Below are positions 85 through 8,307 of a stretch of DNA of 64,000 nt, one piece after another. The DNA lies in IMG/VR virus record IMGVR_UViG_2623620505_000001. One strand, 5' to 3'. Positions within the stretch are counted from its first letter, which is position 1. Each line of letters begins with the position of its first letter. Origin of the DNA: a virus. Its lineage: Duplodnaviria > Heunggongvirae > Uroviricota > Caudoviricetes. Both the position numbers and the translations under genes were made by a program. Under the pieces are notes generated by a model. That model made no database searches. It was not told the origin of the DNA and saw only the letters and a list, made by a program, of their open reading frames with translations.

Positions 85-696
85 ATGTGTCAGATGACGA
101 AAAATAAGTATGCAACGGTCGATTTTGACCAGGTTAATGAAAAGGGGCTGAAATCCCTTATCGCGGCGATCAATAAAACCGGTGTTACGGTAATTGAGGT
201 TGACTCCAGCAACCGCGCAACAACGAAAGATGGCGTTAAAGTTAAAACCGCAAAGCTGGTTCTTAACGACGGACAAATTCTTGCCATACAGGTAAACGAT
301 ACTGGCGATATATCGTCTGTGAGGCTGAATGGAAAAGCTATTCCTAACGCTCAGTCGCCGGATATCAAGACGCTTGGTACCGTCATGGGGCAAGCGGCCC
401 GCAAAAACTCCGCAAAATTCCAGAAATCACTGATCGCCAAAGCGAAACGTGTTGCCAATCCGGTAGACAAGAAACCGGCAGTAAAATCCAACTTTCAGCG
501 CCTGCAAGAGGCAAAACAGCGGAATGCTCAGGTGGTTGCCGCTTATAAATCAGCGCAGAACTCGGTGTCTTTCAATCAACAGCAGATCACTGATTTGCGG
601 GCGAAGCTGGATAAGGAGACAGGCCGACTCAATAACGAAAAGGCCCGAAATGGCGAACTCAAACGCCGTCTTAAGCAACTGAAAGCAGGAAATTAA
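85..696 (+). CDS. hdf: Hdf-like protein (homolog of DarA fragment), first visible gene of the Dar antirestriction operon
   Basis: 203-aa ORF with coiled-coil C-terminus; shares a KNSAKFQ-containing segment with the next ORF; stop is 1 nt before the next start; P1 darA-operon synteny. Confidence 0.6.
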   Translation: MCQMTKNKYATVDFDQVNEKGLKSLIAAINKTGVTVIEVDSSNRATTKDGVKVKTAKLVLNDGQILAIQVNDTGDISSVRLNGKAIPNAQSPDIKTLGTVMGQAARKNSAKFQKSLIAKAKRVANPVDKKPAVKSNFQRLQEAKQRNAQVVAAYKSAQNSVSFNQQQITDLRAKLDKETGRLNNEKARNGELKRRLKQLKAGN

Positions 697-697
697 C

Positions 698-2617
698 ATG
701 GAACAGTTCAATATCAATAAAGGGGTGACGATCAAGCCTGGGCTTGACGTGCTTCCCCCGCCAGTGACTGATGATGAATATCGCGCATTAATGGCCGGTG
801 AGGACCGCTATCTGATGACGGAATCCAACACCCTGGAGGAAATCGAGGCTACGTTCTTCTATGACACGCCGATCCACTGGTGTGCTACGGATTTACTGGA
901 GGCGATTAGTTCTACTCGTTTGCAGTTACACCGGACCATGCAGGCATTTGTCCGGGCATTGAACCAGAAGCTGAATGGTACCGGAATCTCTGCGGGGAGT
1001 GATAAAACGGGGGATGTGGCCCAGAGCGGCGCGCGCGCGATCGGCGGTGCTGAAATTGGCCGGGCACGTAACGTTAACGGGCTGCCGGTCCTGCCAGCCA
1101 TTATTCCGCTCAGTGATGGTCAGACTATCAGCATTCTGTTTCATAGCCCGACAGCGGAAAACCGGATCACCAATAGCGATACGCTGGTTGCTTTCCAGTT
1201 CTTACTGAATAAAAAAGACGTTACTCACACCGTTGCTCCGATGAGTGGACGTGATATGACGCTGGCGCAGGTCACCATGAAACTTGCCAACCTTGCAGAG
1301 AAAAACTCGGCAAAATTTCAGCGTGCGCAGAAGAAGAAAAAAGCCCTTGTTGATGAAATAACCCAACTACAGGCTGACAGTGACCAGAAAGAGGATGCCA
1401 TGAGCGACCTCGTGGATCAGGTGGCAGCGGTAGAAGGGCAGAAGGTAGATCTGGAGCAGAAAATTAACGCTGTTGCATCGGAAGCGGATTCTCTTTATGA
1501 AGAGAATGAGCGTTTGCAGACGGAGATTGATCAGCTCAATCGCACTGGTGGGCGCGATACCATTGCTCCTGCGGGGATGACTGGTGGACACTCTCGCGCG
1601 ATGACGGATCGCCTTGCCAGTATCAAAAATCGTATGCATATGAACGGGGAAGTGACGCTCAGTAATGGTGCATCAATGAAGCAATTCATTGAGGACGGCG
1701 AAGGGTATATCCAGTTAACCGATTCGGATGGCAGCGTGTACATGATCAAGGCTAAATCCATACAGGGTGTGGACATGGCAGATGCGATCGGCAAGCTGTT
1801 TAAAGCCTATAAAGCGGGTAATGTATCGGAATACCTGGTCCAACCAGAAGAACATAAACCGGAAAACGTCGAACCTGAACCAGCGGAGGATACCGGTAGC
1901 TCTTCGCCTGAACCAGAAGTCTCTGTAGGTGCATATCGATATGCCCTGCAAATGCGTCCGGCGGCCCCTGGCGCAATACCTGAAGGTAACAAAGCAATTC
2001 TGCCGCGCCCTGATGAAGGTGACCCGTATTATGAATATGCACGCTACGGCATTGCTACTTACGATACCCCGCTTTCTGATCAGCAAATGAGTGAGTACGA
2101 CCTGAAGTTATTGCCTCGCGAGGATTCTTTCGACTTCCTGGCGAAGACACTTACTAATGGTCCGTTTGGCAAATATGCACAAAAAGCTCTGGAGCTGGCC
2201 ACCAGCTCACCAGACGAGTTCCGCGTAATGCTGAAAACTCAGTTTCAAAAAACTTTCCCCAATATTGCGTTTCCGGGGGGCGCTGGCACCGAGAAAATGG
2301 TGCAGAGCATGATCAATGCATTGCAGGCCGAAGTCGGTGAGATTACTCAGCCAGAACCTGCCCCGGCACAGCCTGATGAAACGGTTAGCGAAGCAGATGC
2401 AGAGGCTAATAAAGCCATTGAATATCTCAATAACGTGATGGATATGCAAAGCACTGACATGGCGGAGATCCGTAACGCCCGGGGTAATGTCCGGGAAGCG
2501 ATTGCAGCCCTTCAGGCTGCCGGGCGTTTTGAGGAAAACGAAGAGCTGGTTAATGGCGCTGCTCGCCACTTGGCTGATCTGCTGGTAGCAATCCAGAAAG
2601 CGGGGGTAGCGGCATGA
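698..2617 (+). CDS. darA: DarA-like internal head / antirestriction protein
   Basis: 639-aa ORF; size and operon position match P1 DarA; internal coiled coil; coupled to flanking ORFs. Confidence 0.7.
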   Translation: MEQFNINKGVTIKPGLDVLPPPVTDDEYRALMAGEDRYLMTESNTLEEIEATFFYDTPIHWCATDLLEAISSTRLQLHRTMQAFVRALNQKLNGTGISAGSDKTGDVAQSGARAIGGAEIGRARNVNGLPVLPAIIPLSDGQTISILFHSPTAENRITNSDTLVAFQFLLNKKDVTHTVAPMSGRDMTLAQVTMKLANLAEKNSAKFQRAQKKKKALVDEITQLQADSDQKEDAMSDLVDQVAAVEGQKVDLEQKINAVASEADSLYEENERLQTEIDQLNRTGGRDTIAPAGMTGGHSRAMTDRLASIKNRMHMNGEVTLSNGASMKQFIEDGEGYIQLTDSDGSVYMIKAKSIQGVDMADAIGKLFKAYKAGNVSEYLVQPEEHKPENVEPEPAEDTGSSSPEPEVSVGAYRYALQMRPAAPGAIPEGNKAILPRPDEGDPYYEYARYGIATYDTPLSDQQMSEYDLKLLPREDSFDFLAKTLTNGPFGKYAQKALELATSSPDEFRVMLKTQFQKTFPNIAFPGGAGTEKMVQSMINALQAEVGEITQPEPAPAQPDETVSEADAEANKAIEYLNNVMDMQSTDMAEIRNARGNVREAIAALQAAGRFEENEELVNGAARHLADLLVAIQKAGVAA

Positions 2618-2991: not shown

Positions 2992-5979
2992 ATGAGCTTA
3001 AGCGATCAGGTGGTAATGGCCACCAGCATAGAAACGCTGATCGAGCTGCTAAAGAACCTGCCCGGTTATGGGCGGGTTTCGTATGTGGTGACAGCGAAGG
3101 GAGACGAGGTAAAAACAGCGTTTGATATCGTCGATGCCTCAGCTCTTTTGGTATCCAATACTCTGGATGGGAAAATTAATCCTGACTATCCCCAGGAACT
3201 TCAGCCGCGCGACCGGACCCGCGCATCCAGCCTTCTTCAGGTTAACCAGATATCCAAAGATTTGCGGCCTGCTCAGCTTACTGATTCCGGTTTATCCAGC
3301 CATGGTGCGCCGATAATTGGTGAGGACAATGCCGTTGAGTCAGGTAATGGACGGACCATGGGGATCATCAAAGCCTATCAGGACGGCAATGCGGATCGGT
3401 ATCGTGAGTACCTGATTGAACATGCGACCGAATTCGGCATACCTCCTGAAAAGGTTGAATCAATGACGGCTCCGGTACTGGTGCGCCGCCGGTTAACTAA
3501 GGTTGACCGCGTTCAGTTTGCCAAGGACTCAAATATTTCTGATCTTCAGGAAATGGCAGCCAGTGAAAAAGCTTTTGTTGATGCCGACAGCATAACACCG
3601 GCGATGATGGCGCTTTTTAACCCGTCAGAAAGCGGAGATCTGCTTAGCCGCAGTAATGACGCGTTTATTCGCGGATTTATGACGCAAGTTGGTGCCACAC
3701 AGGCGGCTGGCCTTGTAATGGAAGATGGGCGACCAACGCGGCAACTTGTTGACCGTATACAAAACGCGATCTTTGCCAAGGCATATAAGGATGCGCGCCT
3801 GGTAAGGATGGTTGCAGAAGAACCTGATCCGGATATGCGTAATGTTCTGACGGCGCTTAATGCGGCAGCCAATGATTTTGTCCAGATGCAGGCTTTATCA
3901 GGAGAAGCGCACAAGCAGGCTGTGACAACTATTGTTGATGGCATTGAGACAGCGGATAGCCTCGATAAAAAGGCGCTGGCGGCATTGAAAGATGCGGTAG
4001 ACCTGGTAAGGCAATCGAAGGAGTCAGGCCAGCATATTACCGATGTTATTGCTCAGGGGGATATGTTCAGCGAAACGGCCCCGGAAGTGAAAGCACTCGC
4101 GTTGTTCATCGTCGCGAATAACCGTAGCGCGAAGCGTATGGCCACCGCCTTTAAGTTGATGGCTCAACGTATCAATGATGAGTTACAGCACCAGGGCCAG
4201 GCGCTGGGGGATATGTTTGGCGGTGGTGATGTGTCGTTACAGGATATCCTTCGCCAGGTGTCTCAGGAACTGGAAAACGAAGGCATGCAAGGGATATCCG
4301 GCGGTCTTTTCGAGTCCGTTTCCGGCGGTAGTTACAATGGTGTTGCTCCATATACCAGTTTGCTATTACATCGGGCATCCGGCATCAAAGACATTATTCA
4401 TCTGATCAGGCTGCTTTCCCGTACAGATCCCCAGGATGAACAGCTTGTACAAGTGCTTGCGCATTTTGTTCGAATGCCTGTTGCCGACGTGAAAAAATGG
4501 TGCCGATTATTCGGTATCAGCAATTCGTTACTTCGCGGCTTGTTAAATCACGCATCCTCCCTTGGGCGCGATGGCTTTGACGAGATAGCGCAGGCGATAA
4601 AAAACGGAGATATGCCACCAGCTATTGACTGGTTTTCCATTCGCCCAACCAGGGTGAAAGCATTCCTTAGCGCGGCGCATTCGGCATCACCATTGGCAGA
4701 AATGGTTCAGAGGTTGTCGCTCATATTCACAGACCATACCGCGTTGGGTGATCTGACTCTGGACGAGATGAAAGAAGCCTCCATTCAGTGGGCCGATCAA
4801 CAAAATGAGGTTAACTCTGACTTCTTGCCAGCATTCAGGAAGGCCGTTAGTAAAGCTGATGATGCCCGTGGAATTCTGAGGGCATTTAAGGCATTGCAAA
4901 GTCAGGTTAATAAACATGTCGGTGATATCGATGGGGTAACGGCGGAAGGCAGGGATATCCTTAAAGAGCACGGCATAACGCCAGAGTTTATTGATGAGAT
5001 CAGGACTGATATGCAGCGTGAGGTCGTATCGTCCCTGCAAATCGTAGCCAGAGCGTTGGCGGATGCTAATCCGAAGAGTGCGGCCATTGTTAACCGTGTT
5101 ATTGGTGATATTGAAGCATCGGAGGGCATGGGGGCGCTGAAACTCTTCCTTTCGCGAGCGTTTAATCCTAACGGCAATATTCTCCCCGGCATTATTGGTG
5201 AGGCTAAAAAGTATGTCAGCGAAGAAGAACTTGAGCATCTTGACCAACTACTTAAGCGATTCTCATATAACCCGCAGACACGCTGGCAAATGAATCAGCA
5301 AAGTATGGGTTCGGTCCACGAGAAAGTGTTATCTGCCATGAACAGTGCGATCGCCAACTCATCCGTATCTGAAGAAAAAGCTCTTGAGTGGGCCGACTCT
5401 TTTATCACGGAAGAAGTGGAAGAAGCCCGCGCTGGACAGAATGGTGGGATAGACCTGCGCAAGGAACTTGCTGATATTTATCGCCTGACCGGCGGTAAAA
5501 TTTCGACCTTATCAAAGGTGGTTCACCACCAGGGAAGGGCATATGCAAATATTAATGGTGTTGTTGCTGTCAATTTGAACGATGAAAATGCAAGTGCACT
5601 GTGGCACGAGCTGGGTCATCATCTTGAGTACAGTAACCCTGGTTTGTTAGAGAAAGCCCGGTCATTCCTGAAGGCCAATGTTGAAGGGGATAAGCCATCT
5701 TTCGTTAATATCGGTGGGCGTGGCAAGCCTGAATGGTGCTTCAGATCTCGATTGAGTAATATTTATATGGCGAAGGTATACCCGCCAGCCTCAGTAAGTA
5801 ACACCGGGAAAATTCGGCAGAAATCACCGACTATTTCCAAAACGTCAGCAACGGAAGTATTCTCTATGGCTCTTCAGTTGTATCATGACAAAGAGGCCGC
5901 TGCCGCATCACTGATGAATGGTGACGGATTGCTGGAACTGTTATTAGGTGTGGCAAAGGAGCTAAATAATGCAGATTAA
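2992..5979 (+). CDS. large Dar-operon protein (DdrB-like) with HExxH zincin-like motif
   Basis: 995-aa ORF; motif WHELGHHLEY near the C-terminus; synteny with the P1 dar operon. Confidence 0.55.
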   Translation: MSLSDQVVMATSIETLIELLKNLPGYGRVSYVVTAKGDEVKTAFDIVDASALLVSNTLDGKINPDYPQELQPRDRTRASSLLQVNQISKDLRPAQLTDSGLSSHGAPIIGEDNAVESGNGRTMGIIKAYQDGNADRYREYLIEHATEFGIPPEKVESMTAPVLVRRRLTKVDRVQFAKDSNISDLQEMAASEKAFVDADSITPAMMALFNPSESGDLLSRSNDAFIRGFMTQVGATQAAGLVMEDGRPTRQLVDRIQNAIFAKAYKDARLVRMVAEEPDPDMRNVLTALNAAANDFVQMQALSGEAHKQAVTTIVDGIETADSLDKKALAALKDAVDLVRQSKESGQHITDVIAQGDMFSETAPEVKALALFIVANNRSAKRMATAFKLMAQRINDELQHQGQALGDMFGGGDVSLQDILRQVSQELENEGMQGISGGLFESVSGGSYNGVAPYTSLLLHRASGIKDIIHLIRLLSRTDPQDEQLVQVLAHFVRMPVADVKKWCRLFGISNSLLRGLLNHASSLGRDGFDEIAQAIKNGDMPPAIDWFSIRPTRVKAFLSAAHSASPLAEMVQRLSLIFTDHTALGDLTLDEMKEASIQWADQQNEVNSDFLPAFRKAVSKADDARGILRAFKALQSQVNKHVGDIDGVTAEGRDILKEHGITPEFIDEIRTDMQREVVSSLQIVARALADANPKSAAIVNRVIGDIEASEGMGALKLFLSRAFNPNGNILPGIIGEAKKYVSEEELEHLDQLLKRFSYNPQTRWQMNQQSMGSVHEKVLSAMNSAIANSSVSEEKALEWADSFITEEVEEARAGQNGGIDLRKELADIYRLTGGKISTLSKVVHHQGRAYANINGVVAVNLNDENASALWHELGHHLEYSNPGLLEKARSFLKANVEGDKPSFVNIGGRGKPEWCFRSRLSNIYMAKVYPPASVSNTGKIRQKSPTISKTSATEVFSMALQLYHDKEAAAASLMNGDGLLELLLGVAKELNNAD

Positions 5980-6280
5980 AATCGCAGCGCCATTAGGCGG
6001 AGATGCCATTATCGAATTTGATGATAATGAAGAAGTTTCCGGGCGTTTAAGCATTATCTCCGGTGACATTACCGAGGACATGATCGCTGAAGCCATAGCT
6101 GGGGCAAATCCCAATAGCTATATGGGATTCGTTAACACCCTTGATGCTCCCGCAAGTGATGTTCTCCGAACGCTGCATCTTTACGCTGGCTGGTTTGTTG
6201 ATTGGCCAGCAGTAGATGGTGGCGATGAGGACGACGACGACGATGATTTTGGTGATCATGTAGACCAGATCGTATATTGA
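5969..6280 (+). CDS. small acidic protein with poly-Asp C-terminal tail
   Basis: 103-aa ORF overlapping the end of the previous gene; C-terminus DGGDEDDDDDDFGD; followed by a terminator. Confidence 0.5.
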   Translation: MQIKIAAPLGGDAIIEFDDNEEVSGRLSIISGDITEDMIAEAIAGANPNSYMGFVNTLDAPASDVLRTLHLYAGWFVDWPAVDGGDEDDDDDDFGDHVDQIVY

Positions 6281-6311: not shown

Positions 6312-7406
6312 TCACGAGAAACTCTTTTCTGATGTCAGCCAACAGTGCTCGTGCATATCTCTTGGTGGTTTTTCGACAAATGCCTCTTCAGCCACATCCT
6401 GCCAGGGGATTTGTTTAGCCCATTCAGTTATAGCGTTATGGTTTGCCGAGAATAACGGTATTGTATAGGCCTTCAGCCAGTCTAATGTGCTGGAGTTGTG
6501 TTTTTGAGCGTGATGTTTCGCATGGTGTTTGGCGATCACGATCGTAGGCACTACCCATTTACTACCGTCAGTCATTGTGAAGTGCATATTACGGGGAACA
6601 GATGACTTTTCCATCAACTCCCGAATCCCTGGGAATTTCCCCAAGATCAATCGGCGATATTCATCGCTATTGCGCCCACCAAACTCTTTGGCTTTGAATT
6701 CAAGATATGCTTCAGAAACGAGAGGTGAATCCTCTGTGTTTAGAGTTATCGCCGTGAAAAAACCAGCAGGATTGTTTTTACTATGGGCCAACCGGTGATG
6801 CGAATCATAAAAGTACCCTTTCTCGCGTTCCGATGGTTTCGACAGCAACAGCAGGCGCGAGTCATAATTGGTTAAATTGCCAGTTATCACTGCATGAGCG
6901 CGATCGCTGATTTCCGCCGAGTTAATAACGATGAAAAGATCGTGCGGTCCAGTAAAACCAGCCAGAGACTCTTCGTTATTCAGACAATAGGTTATATAGA
7001 CGCATCCCCATGTTTCACTGATATGCACCAACCCTTTGTCAGGGTGTATTCTGAAATAATTGCCAAGAAAAGTGTGTTTTTGGGTAACTCGCTCCCAATA
7101 ACGGAACATATAGTCAATTATTGTTTTTCGACAATCGTTAATCGCAGGAGAAACAACCACTGTACGGGAACACGAATACAGTATTGTTTGCAGGATGCTA
7201 ATCACTGCCACAATAGAGGTTTCCCCAATACCATGTGGTGTGGTGGCAGTGATTTTGGCTCCGGTGTTCTTTATCGCGTTAATAATTTTTGCTTGATGAG
7301 GTGTTAACTCAATATCAAGCAACTCTTTTGCTGCCAGTTCCCAATTGTCTTTATACCGTTCTATCAGTGCTAACCAGGCAGATTCATTCTGTATACGATT
7401 AATCAC
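6312..7406 (-). CDS. PacB-like protein: paralog of the terminase large subunit ATPase domain, lacking the C-terminal part
   Basis: 364 aa; clear similarity to PacB at 26514..27998 (GYFYDSHHRLA vs [11 protein letters not shown]; TAITLNTEDSPLVS vs [14 protein letters not shown]; Walker-like GIGETS vs GTGKSD). Confidence 0.7.
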   Translation of the reverse strand: MINRIQNESAWLALIERYKDNWELAAKELLDIELTPHQAKIINAIKNTGAKITATTPHGIGETSIVAVISILQTILYSCSRTVVVSPAINDCRKTIIDYMFRYWERVTQKHTFLGNYFRIHPDKGLVHISETWGCVYITYCLNNEESLAGFTGPHDLFIVINSAEISDRAHAVITGNLTNYDSRLLLLSKPSEREKGYFYDSHHRLAHSKNNPAGFFTAITLNTEDSPLVSEAYLEFKAKEFGGRNSDEYRRLILGKFPGIRELMEKSSVPRNMHFTMTDGSKWVVPTIVIAKHHAKHHAQKHNSSTLDWLKAYTIPLFSANHNAITEWAKQIPWQDVAEEAFVEKPPRDMHEHCWLTSEKSFS

Positions 7407-8307
7407 TTTCCACCTCTTCCGTGGTGTTTTCTTGCAGTTCTGTTAATGCAGCACGACATAGGTTCCGGGCATTGGCTATAGCCACACTTTTGACTTCATC
7501 CGTCATCGTGCAGGTAATGTACTGATCGAGTTCTTCAGCGCGGATGATGCTTTTGCCAATCAGAAACTGTATTTGCCATAGCAGATCGGCATCCATAATC
7601 AGAATTTCTGCCGGGCCTTCAGGGCCAGCCGGGAAGGAAACATAAGACTGTTTGCCCAGGCCGACAACTCGACAACTTGCTTCAAGAATTGCGCGCTTGA
7701 GGTCTGACTTTATAACGGAAACAGGTTGATTTTCACCAGTGATTACGCCGTTGACATGGAAAGGCATGTAGCTTGAAATACGCTCTACTTTCCACACGCC
7801 AGCAAGCGATCCTTCATGCAGCACAATGGGGGTAACCGCGAGTTTCATCTCACCATATAACTGCTGGCAGATAGCTGGATTGCTGAATACATCTAAAGGC
7901 TCACATTCAAACAGCGGCGCAATCTGCATGAGGTCCATCATGGTCATCCCTGGGGTACGAGCAGTAATGAATTTGCGCATACCAGTATCCATTGCGCTCC
8001 AGATTGCTACACCATGCTTTTTGCTCACTTCTTCAGTAAAGCCAAGGTGGCACATGATGGTTTTTTCGATAGCCAGATCAGAGATAGAAACCTTTTCGCC
8101 AGGTACTCCATCATTATTGATGGTCACTTCGACACTCTGGCCATTACGTAGGCGGTATTGAATGGTTTTAGTATTTTGTGCTGTCATAGTCTTTTCTCTG
8201 CTTAAAAACTGATGTATTGCGTCTTCAGGTGGGTTAGGAATGTTTTCCCACCAGCGAAAGCAATATCTCGTGGTGTTCTGTTCGTTAAAAACGCGTGCCA
8301 TTGCCAA
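7399..8307 (-). CDS. hypothetical protein
   Basis: 302-aa ORF, same strand and overlapping start of the PacB-like gene. Confidence 0.5.
   Translation of the reverse strand: MAMARVFNEQNTTRYCFRWWENIPNPPEDAIHQFLSREKTMTAQNTKTIQYRLRNGQSVEVTINNDGVPGEKVSISDLAIEKTIMCHLGFTEEVSKKHGVAIWSAMDTGMRKFITARTPGMTMMDLMQIAPLFECEPLDVFSNPAICQQLYGEMKLAVTPIVLHEGSLAGVWKVERISSYMPFHVNGVITGENQPVSVIKSDLKRAILEASCRVVGLGKQSYVSFPAGPEGPAEILIMDADLLWQIQFLIGKSIIRAEELDQYITCTMTDEVKSVAIANARNLCRAALTELQENTTEEVESD

Follow-up and report, generated by a model that had tools for sequence, protein, structure and literature searches.

Do the counter-defence proteins that a phage packages in its head need a maturation protease of their own? 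This question is raised by ddrB, a gene of the dar operon, in a 64,000-nucleotide (nt) stretch of DNA (IMG/VR record IMGVR_UViG_2623620505_000001, here called the window) that was found to belong to a P1-like phage (Punavirus). The Dar system is the textbook case of antirestriction proteins carried in the virion. The open reading frame (ORF) at 2992..5979 on the plus strand is ddrB, which encodes a protein of 995 amino acids (aa) and 108.6 kDa, and its DNA is 98-99% identical over the whole length to ddrB of P1, P7, SJ46, RCS47 and others. The gene order hdf, darA, ddrA, ddrB, hxr (5969..6280) is also that of P1. On the grounds of residue conservation and predicted fold, residues ~780-995 of DdrB are a genuine gluzincin-type zinc metallopeptidase domain resembling anthrax lethal factor (LF), and it is likely that this domain is a real, probably active peptidase with limited proteolysis inside the head-internal Dar module as its task.

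That DdrB may be a metallopeptidase is already known. The P1 annotation has carried the prediction since 2004 (the RefSeq note reads 'unknown protein function; possible metallopeptidase'), the P7 gene is named prt, 'putative protease', the JL22 annotation gives 'putative metallopeptidase', and Lenart et al. 2013 listed the DdrB family among zincins 'suspected but not described formally'. In their paper on polyvalent proteins, Iyer et al. 2017 (PMC5512222) described a C-terminal metallopeptidase (MPTase) in DdrB whose fold combines a sheet of three strands with an HEXXH helix and a Glu helix, and noted that phage-type clades have an acidic residue at the third position past HEXXH; this is the same object as the domain studied here. 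What is added in this work is the assignment to the LF-like fold, a residue-level proposal for the active site in which E955 is preferred to Glu residues nearer the motif, the finding that no curated model covers the domain, and a strong synteny of DarA_N and peptidase genes. In the literature searched, no paper testing the DdrB active site was found.

The sequence WHELGHHLEY occupies residues 871-880 (nt 5602-5631), and the HExxH within it, at 872-876, is the sole one in the whole of DdrB. The original prediction had pointed to this motif near the C-terminus of a 995-aa DdrB-like protein, flagging 5560-5700, and it is indeed found inside that range (Table 1). The composition of DdrB leads to an expectation of 0.028 HExxH motifs by chance, and since 2.8% of composition-matched shuffles contain one, the motif alone is weak evidence and only mildly unusual. 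This frequency, together with the failure of any curated family model to match the region, speaks for an HExxH that arose by chance in a helical region devoid of catalytic function; that explanation is effectively refuted by the conservation and the fold described below and is almost certainly wrong. The significance of the HExxH of DdrB, as judged from the alignments, comes from its conservation.

To collect homologues, 1.84 billion cluster representatives were searched exhaustively with a profile, since a word-indexed search had returned close relatives only; this gave 486 proteins at E ≤ 1e-3, 69 of them at E ≤ 1e-10. The main conservation counts were taken from a local alignment of 154 domain segments. 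At occupied positions H872 and E873 were conserved in 152/152 and H876 in 152/153. R849 was present in 152/154 segments, A852 was near-invariant, and further downstream Y925 (154/154), K928 (141/154), Y930 (151/154), T954 (90%), E955 (154/154) and S958 (92%) were strongly retained, while H877 was kept in 83%. The same invariant residue set recurred in an alignment of 60 full-length proteins (A2), mostly 16-47% identical to DdrB, in one of 140 sequences (A3) and in a separate alignment of a subclass of ~625 aa (A4). HELGH was kept in all 80 P1-like IMG/VR copies of ddrB, and among their 22 distinct C-terminal variants K928 was the only key residue that varied. Lack of conservation among DdrB homologues had been named as an outcome that would refute the prediction; with motif residues conserved at 98-100% in ~150 homologues, the prediction stands on this point. 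The Glu residues that it had noted shortly downstream of the motif, presumably E879, E887 and E898, fared unequally, as E879 was conserved in 152/154 segments, and E887 (25%) and E898 (30%) were not. One homologue of 903 aa (P0028) carries two DdrB-type peptidase domains, at 360-496 and 745-863, and recalls the polyvalent proteins with several MPTase domains that Iyer et al. reported.

AlphaFold2 (AF2) modelling of residues 770-995 with alignment A3 gave a mean predicted local distance difference test score (pLDDT) of 90.9 and a predicted template modelling score of 0.89. Structure prediction of residues about 800-995 had been proposed as a check on whether the motif sits in a zincin fold, and the model of this slightly longer segment places HExxH in a confident zincin-type fold. 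It begins with four helices (772-832), which are followed by the three-stranded sheet, the active-site helix, a helix at 883-896 and, at the end, helices 956-965, 967-976 and 980-993; hairpin strands at 897-905 and 914-919 appear in the full-length model only. Thus HExxH is on a helix directly after a small mixed beta-sheet, as in zincins. E955 heads helix 956-965, 79 residues past H876, and as a putative metal-binding Glu the segment E955-V-F-S958 fits the glutamate-helix motif of gluzincins, (E,H)xx(A,F,T,S,G), taken from the ArdC structure paper, as well as the EXXA of MtfA. Residue conservation and the confident AF2 fold are the two grounds for regarding this as a genuine gluzincin-type domain. 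The alternative of a metzincin was rejected, as HELGHHLEYSN has a Glu in place of the Gly that HExxHxxGxxH requires at +3, and an Asn in place of the third His at +6. The loop at 931-953, modelled less confidently (pLDDT 71-79) and occupied in just ~18-47 of the 154 homologues, could be a regulatory or substrate-gating loop.

Structural comparison placed the model closest to the LF-like gluzincins (M34 PPEP/LF and M90 MtfA). The neighbours and their scores were PPEP-3 (9g0j, 8.3), PPEP-2 (6fpc, 7.7), Certhrax (4fxq, 7.3), anthrax LF (6psn, 3kwv, 1yqy and 2l0r, 7.1-5.9), MtfA (3dl1, 7.0) and edema factor (1xfv, 6.5). The likeness to this group (PPEP-1/-2/-3 and LF in MEROPS M34, MtfA in M90) is at the level of the fold, whereas significant sequence or profile similarity is absent, with 6% hhalign probability and no PDB sequence match. 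The DdrB family has, in addition, its own conserved R849, E914, Y925 and K928, and DdrB is a phage head-internal protein, whereas the LF-like members are secreted toxins or cytoplasmic regulators. DdrB also resembles ArdC of plasmid R388 (MPTase-PolyVal, PF18818), an antirestriction protein that arrives together with incoming DNA; there too a gluzincin domain with HExxH and a Glu helix (H201, H205, E229) is fused to an N-terminal domain related to nucleic acids.

None of the curated models covers the domain. DdrB residues 751-995 gave no Pfam match even at E ≤ 10, and no NCBIfam or PADLOC model matched the peptidase domain. Searches of the 60 homologues with Pfam peptidase models, MPTase-PolyVal included, gave none, save one marginal Reprolysin_4 hit (0.0046), and a PDB sequence search with the DdrB C-terminus returned no relative. 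PHROGs 2299, 20397 and 33618 do cover the domain, and all are labelled 'unknown function'.

The residue-level proposal for the active site leans on analogy with PPEP-3, in which His153, His157 and Glu197 are the zinc ligands, Glu154 acts as the base and the oxyanion hole is provided by Tyr190, and with anthrax LF, in which the corresponding residues are His686, His690, Glu735 and Glu687. We infer from topology and motifs that H872 and H876, on the active-site helix, and E955, at the start of the ExxS helix, probably bind the metal. E873 would be the general base that activates water, and Y930 (or Y925) would stabilise the tetrahedral intermediate. The original prediction pointed to Glu residues shortly downstream of the motif; as third ligand, E955 (nt 5854-5856), which is outside the range it flagged, fits better, and the conserved E879 is more probably a second-shell acid that would orient a His ligand, like the Asp in MtfA HEVAHKLD. 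The sequence of E. coli MtfA holds HEVAHKLD and DAYAASDPAECFAV, and its glutamate-helix motif is EXXA. The DdrB family hidden Markov model (HMM) pairs HELGHHLE with HEVAHKLD, placing E879 on the Asp, in a match that is not significant. A low-stringency hhalign run against 120 MtfA sequences was collinear on H, E, H and E/D, and aligned Y930 with the Tyr of MtfA DAYAAS and the E955 helix with MtfA AECFAV; because its probability was just 6.4%, this collinearity is a hint and no proof. The spacing between the Tyr and the Glu is 6 in the DdrB family consensus (Y410/E416 in homologue P0051) and 7 in PPEP-3 (Tyr190/Glu197) and in MtfA, as counted from sequence; it reaches 25 in P1 because of the insertion of 19-23 residues in that clade.

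A domain with this fold could still have lost its chemistry and may bind metal while its job is protein-protein binding, for instance as a pseudo-enzyme or adaptor that attaches DarB or Ulx to the DarA/Hdf layer in the head, with catalysis dispensable for Dar function. Pseudo-enzymes usually lose their catalytic residues, whereas the general base E873, the two His residues, the Tyr and the Glu are retained at 98-100% in ~150 proteins, mostly 16-47% identical. This conservation argues for selection on chemistry and makes a purely binding role unlikely.

The setting of the domain in other phages bears on its role. Among the 60 homologues the partner domains were ddrB-ParB (16), Phage_Mu_F (8), InPase (4) and Portal_Mu (2), with LPD3 and PBECR1 also found, and partner PHROGs were labelled 'minor head protein / head morphogenesis', which marks these homologues as head-packaged polyvalent proteins. 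The partners ddrB-ParB, MuF, InPase, LPD and PBECR are those reported for the polyvalent MPTases of Iyer et al. 2017, and the domain of DdrB is, like these, a zincin domain within multidomain phage or plasmid proteins that travel with DNA and bear such partners; Iyer et al. themselves place DdrB in this group.

Gene neighbourhoods were then compared in 62 diverse loci from IMG/VR, which share 26-43% identity with a query led by a distant family member; a search led by alignment A3 had retrieved P1-like contigs only. The set is biased toward one subclass and contains some near-duplicates. DarA_N ORFs lay upstream on the same strand in 50 of the 62 loci, usually abutting the peptidase gene, and 34 of those 50 had the pair of a small Hdf-like and a large DarA-like gene that is seen in P1. 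Pfam confirmed DarA_N in 8/9 ORFs tested, some of which also had InPase or DarA_C, and the 12 loci lacking DarA_N were mostly short contigs or of different architecture. Two metagenomic contigs have a DarA_N protein immediately upstream of a peptidase protein of ~625 aa. The ddrB-ParB domain occurred in just 3/62 peptidase ORFs, and thus the peptidase, rather than ParB, is the conserved partner of DarA/Hdf. Two other arrangements were considered and set aside. A fixed pair of peptidase and giant effector is not general, the next downstream gene being at least 700 aa in just 15/66 loci; and a DarA_N-peptidase fusion in a 790-aa protein (P0066, locus L008, 4041..6410), suggested by our own iterated HMM at residues 5-135 (E = 5.7e-22), was not confirmed by Pfam DarA_N. 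A stand-alone DdrB-type peptidase domain of 270 aa (P0047, locus L009) was found in a plasmid-like context (Rep3, DnaB, helix-turn-helix) with no DarA_N nearby, so that the domain is not confined to phage head modules.

Within the reading of DdrB as an active LF-like gluzincin, the peptidase domain would be part of a conserved head-internal module made of an Hdf-like, a DarA-like and a peptidase protein, and its most likely role would be limited proteolysis during head assembly. The substrate may be DdrB itself, as in the proposal of Iyer et al. 2017 (PMC5512222) that DdrB (109 kDa) cleaves itself before packaging and so yields the virion form, reported at 76 kDa. Co-packaged Dar or polyvalent proteins are possible further substrates, which would tie in with the known requirement for DdrB in the loading of DarB. 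Loading of the Dar proteins is ordered and follows that of Hdf and DarA, and DdrB has been detected in the virion proteome with 39 peptides (59.5% coverage) and described as a protein that 'aids DarB addition to capsid'.

By computed mass, a 76 kDa product fits either residues 1 to ~698 or residues ~300 to 995, and the identity of the packaged fragment, N- or C-terminal, decides whether a 'packaged protease' exists. The original prediction spoke of one, which is a conjecture; Iyer et al. 2017 (PMC5512222) expect the N-terminal fragment, devoid of the peptidase, to be packaged. Residues 288-307 (nt 3853..3912) are the only long disordered linker of the full-length model (pLDDT < 50), and a C-terminal fragment starting at ~300 would begin at this linker and keep the peptidase. 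Such a fragment would suit an injected effector protease, entering with the DNA to cleave a host protein, e.g. a subunit of a type I restriction enzyme. An attack on host defence proteins was the second role put forward in the original prediction, after processing of capsid proteins. Cleavage of host proteins is typical of LF-like peptidases, most of which are effectors, and Iyer et al. 2017 name an injected protease among the possibilities. Dar protection, on the other hand, acts strictly in cis, on DNA of the same virion, and this sits badly with a protease that diffuses and destroys a restriction enzyme, and in addition to the predicted packaging of the N-terminal fragment, no target is known. 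We regard injection of an effector protease as very unlikely.

Several points weigh against an active processing peptidase. The sequence links of the domain to known peptidase families are not significant (Pfam, NCBIfam, PDB and hhalign at 6%), and a Foldseek search of the PDB matched nothing to the DdrB model. The geometry of H872, H876 and E955 is deduced from the topology and the motifs, so that the third ligand could also be E914 or E879. The literature searched held no biochemical evidence that DdrB or a homologue of it binds metal or cleaves proteins. In P1, cleavage of DarA and of the capsid protein is attributed to the prohead protease Pro, and ddrB is non-essential, while the 76 kDa form is reported second-hand via Iyer 2017. 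Last, the E229A variant of ArdC, the closest analogue that has been studied, retained full antirestriction function, so that its metalloprotease site is dispensable, which is a caution against taking catalysis as the basis of the Dar phenotype.

The remaining features of the locus are collected in Table 1. In the full-length AF2 model the middle region of DdrB is of low confidence at 288-307 and about 440-590. An antisense ORF of 132 aa within ddrB, at 3546..3944 on the minus strand, corresponds to the annotated P1 gene iddB, a putative gene, and had no Pfam match. Between hxr and ssb, the minus-strand region 6312..8307 holds two ORFs of 364 and 302 aa, neither with a Pfam or PADLOC match, and is 99% identical to phage vB_EcoM-813R1. 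The region of the 302-aa ORF matches P1 isaA, and the 364-aa ORF stands in place of P1 isaB and IS1, which indicates that the window phage lacks the IS1 insertion of the reference P1.

Table 1 Features of the dar region and of the predicted peptidase domain of DdrB, in nucleotide positions of the window.
Feature	Position	Strand	Basis
hdf, leading gene of the dar operon context, encoding a small head protein with a DarA_N domain	85..696	+	Pfam DarA_N E=1.5e-21; P1 annotation
darA, internal head protein, DarA_N and DarA_C	698..2617	+	Pfam DarA_N 3.8e-42, DarA_C 5.7e-17; P1 annotation
ddrA, 121 aa	2614..2979	+	ORF list; P1 annotation
ddrB-ParB domain, DdrB residues 36-167	3097..3492	+	Pfam PF18763 E=1.8e-39
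All-helical middle region of DdrB, residues 168-779	3493..5328	+	Full-length AF2 model, pLDDT 75
C-terminal zincin (gluzincin, LF-like) metallopeptidase domain, residues ~780-995, predicted	5329..5976	+	
Three-stranded beta-sheet, 842-845, 851-853, 857-860, ahead of the active-site helix; holds R849 (nt 5536-5538) and A852	5515..5571	+	AF2 model, alignment
Active-site helix, residues 867-881, bearing HExxH and E879	5590..5634	+	DSSP of model
HExxH, H872-E873-L-G-H876; predicted zinc ligands H872 and H876, with E873 as predicted general base	5605..5619	+	Invariant in alignments
E879, third residue past H876; predicted second-shell acid	5626..5628	+	152/154; HMM alignment to MtfA
E914, near-invariant, start of second hairpin strand (914-919); alternative metal or substrate ligand	5731..5733	+	153/154; full-length model
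Y925-x-x-K928-x-Y930 motif; Y930 (or Y925) candidate oxyanion-stabilising Tyr as in LF-like peptidases	5764..5781	+	Conservation; low-stringency hhalign; PPEP-3 analogy
P1-clade-specific loop insertion of 19-23 residues (931-953), between Tyr motif and Glu helix	5782..5850	+	Column occupancy
Glutamate helix, T954-E955-V-F-S958 (ExxS) and helix 956-965; E955 predicted third zinc ligand	5851..5886	+	Conservation; model; motif

DdrB thus carries a predicted and seemingly intact protease site that is conserved in hundreds of phage head-internal proteins, mostly encoded just after DarA/Hdf-type genes. A bolder and rather doubtful proposal is that the DdrB-type peptidase is the dedicated processing enzyme of a widespread capsid-internal module of Hdf-like, DarA-like and peptidase proteins, clipping DarA-type N-termini or maturing giant effectors such as DarB, or that it enters the cell on the C-terminal 76 kDa fragment and cleaves a host defence protein. 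If either form of it were true, processing enzyme or injected protease, an uncharacterised and currently unmodelled peptidase family would gain a defined role in phage counter-defence.

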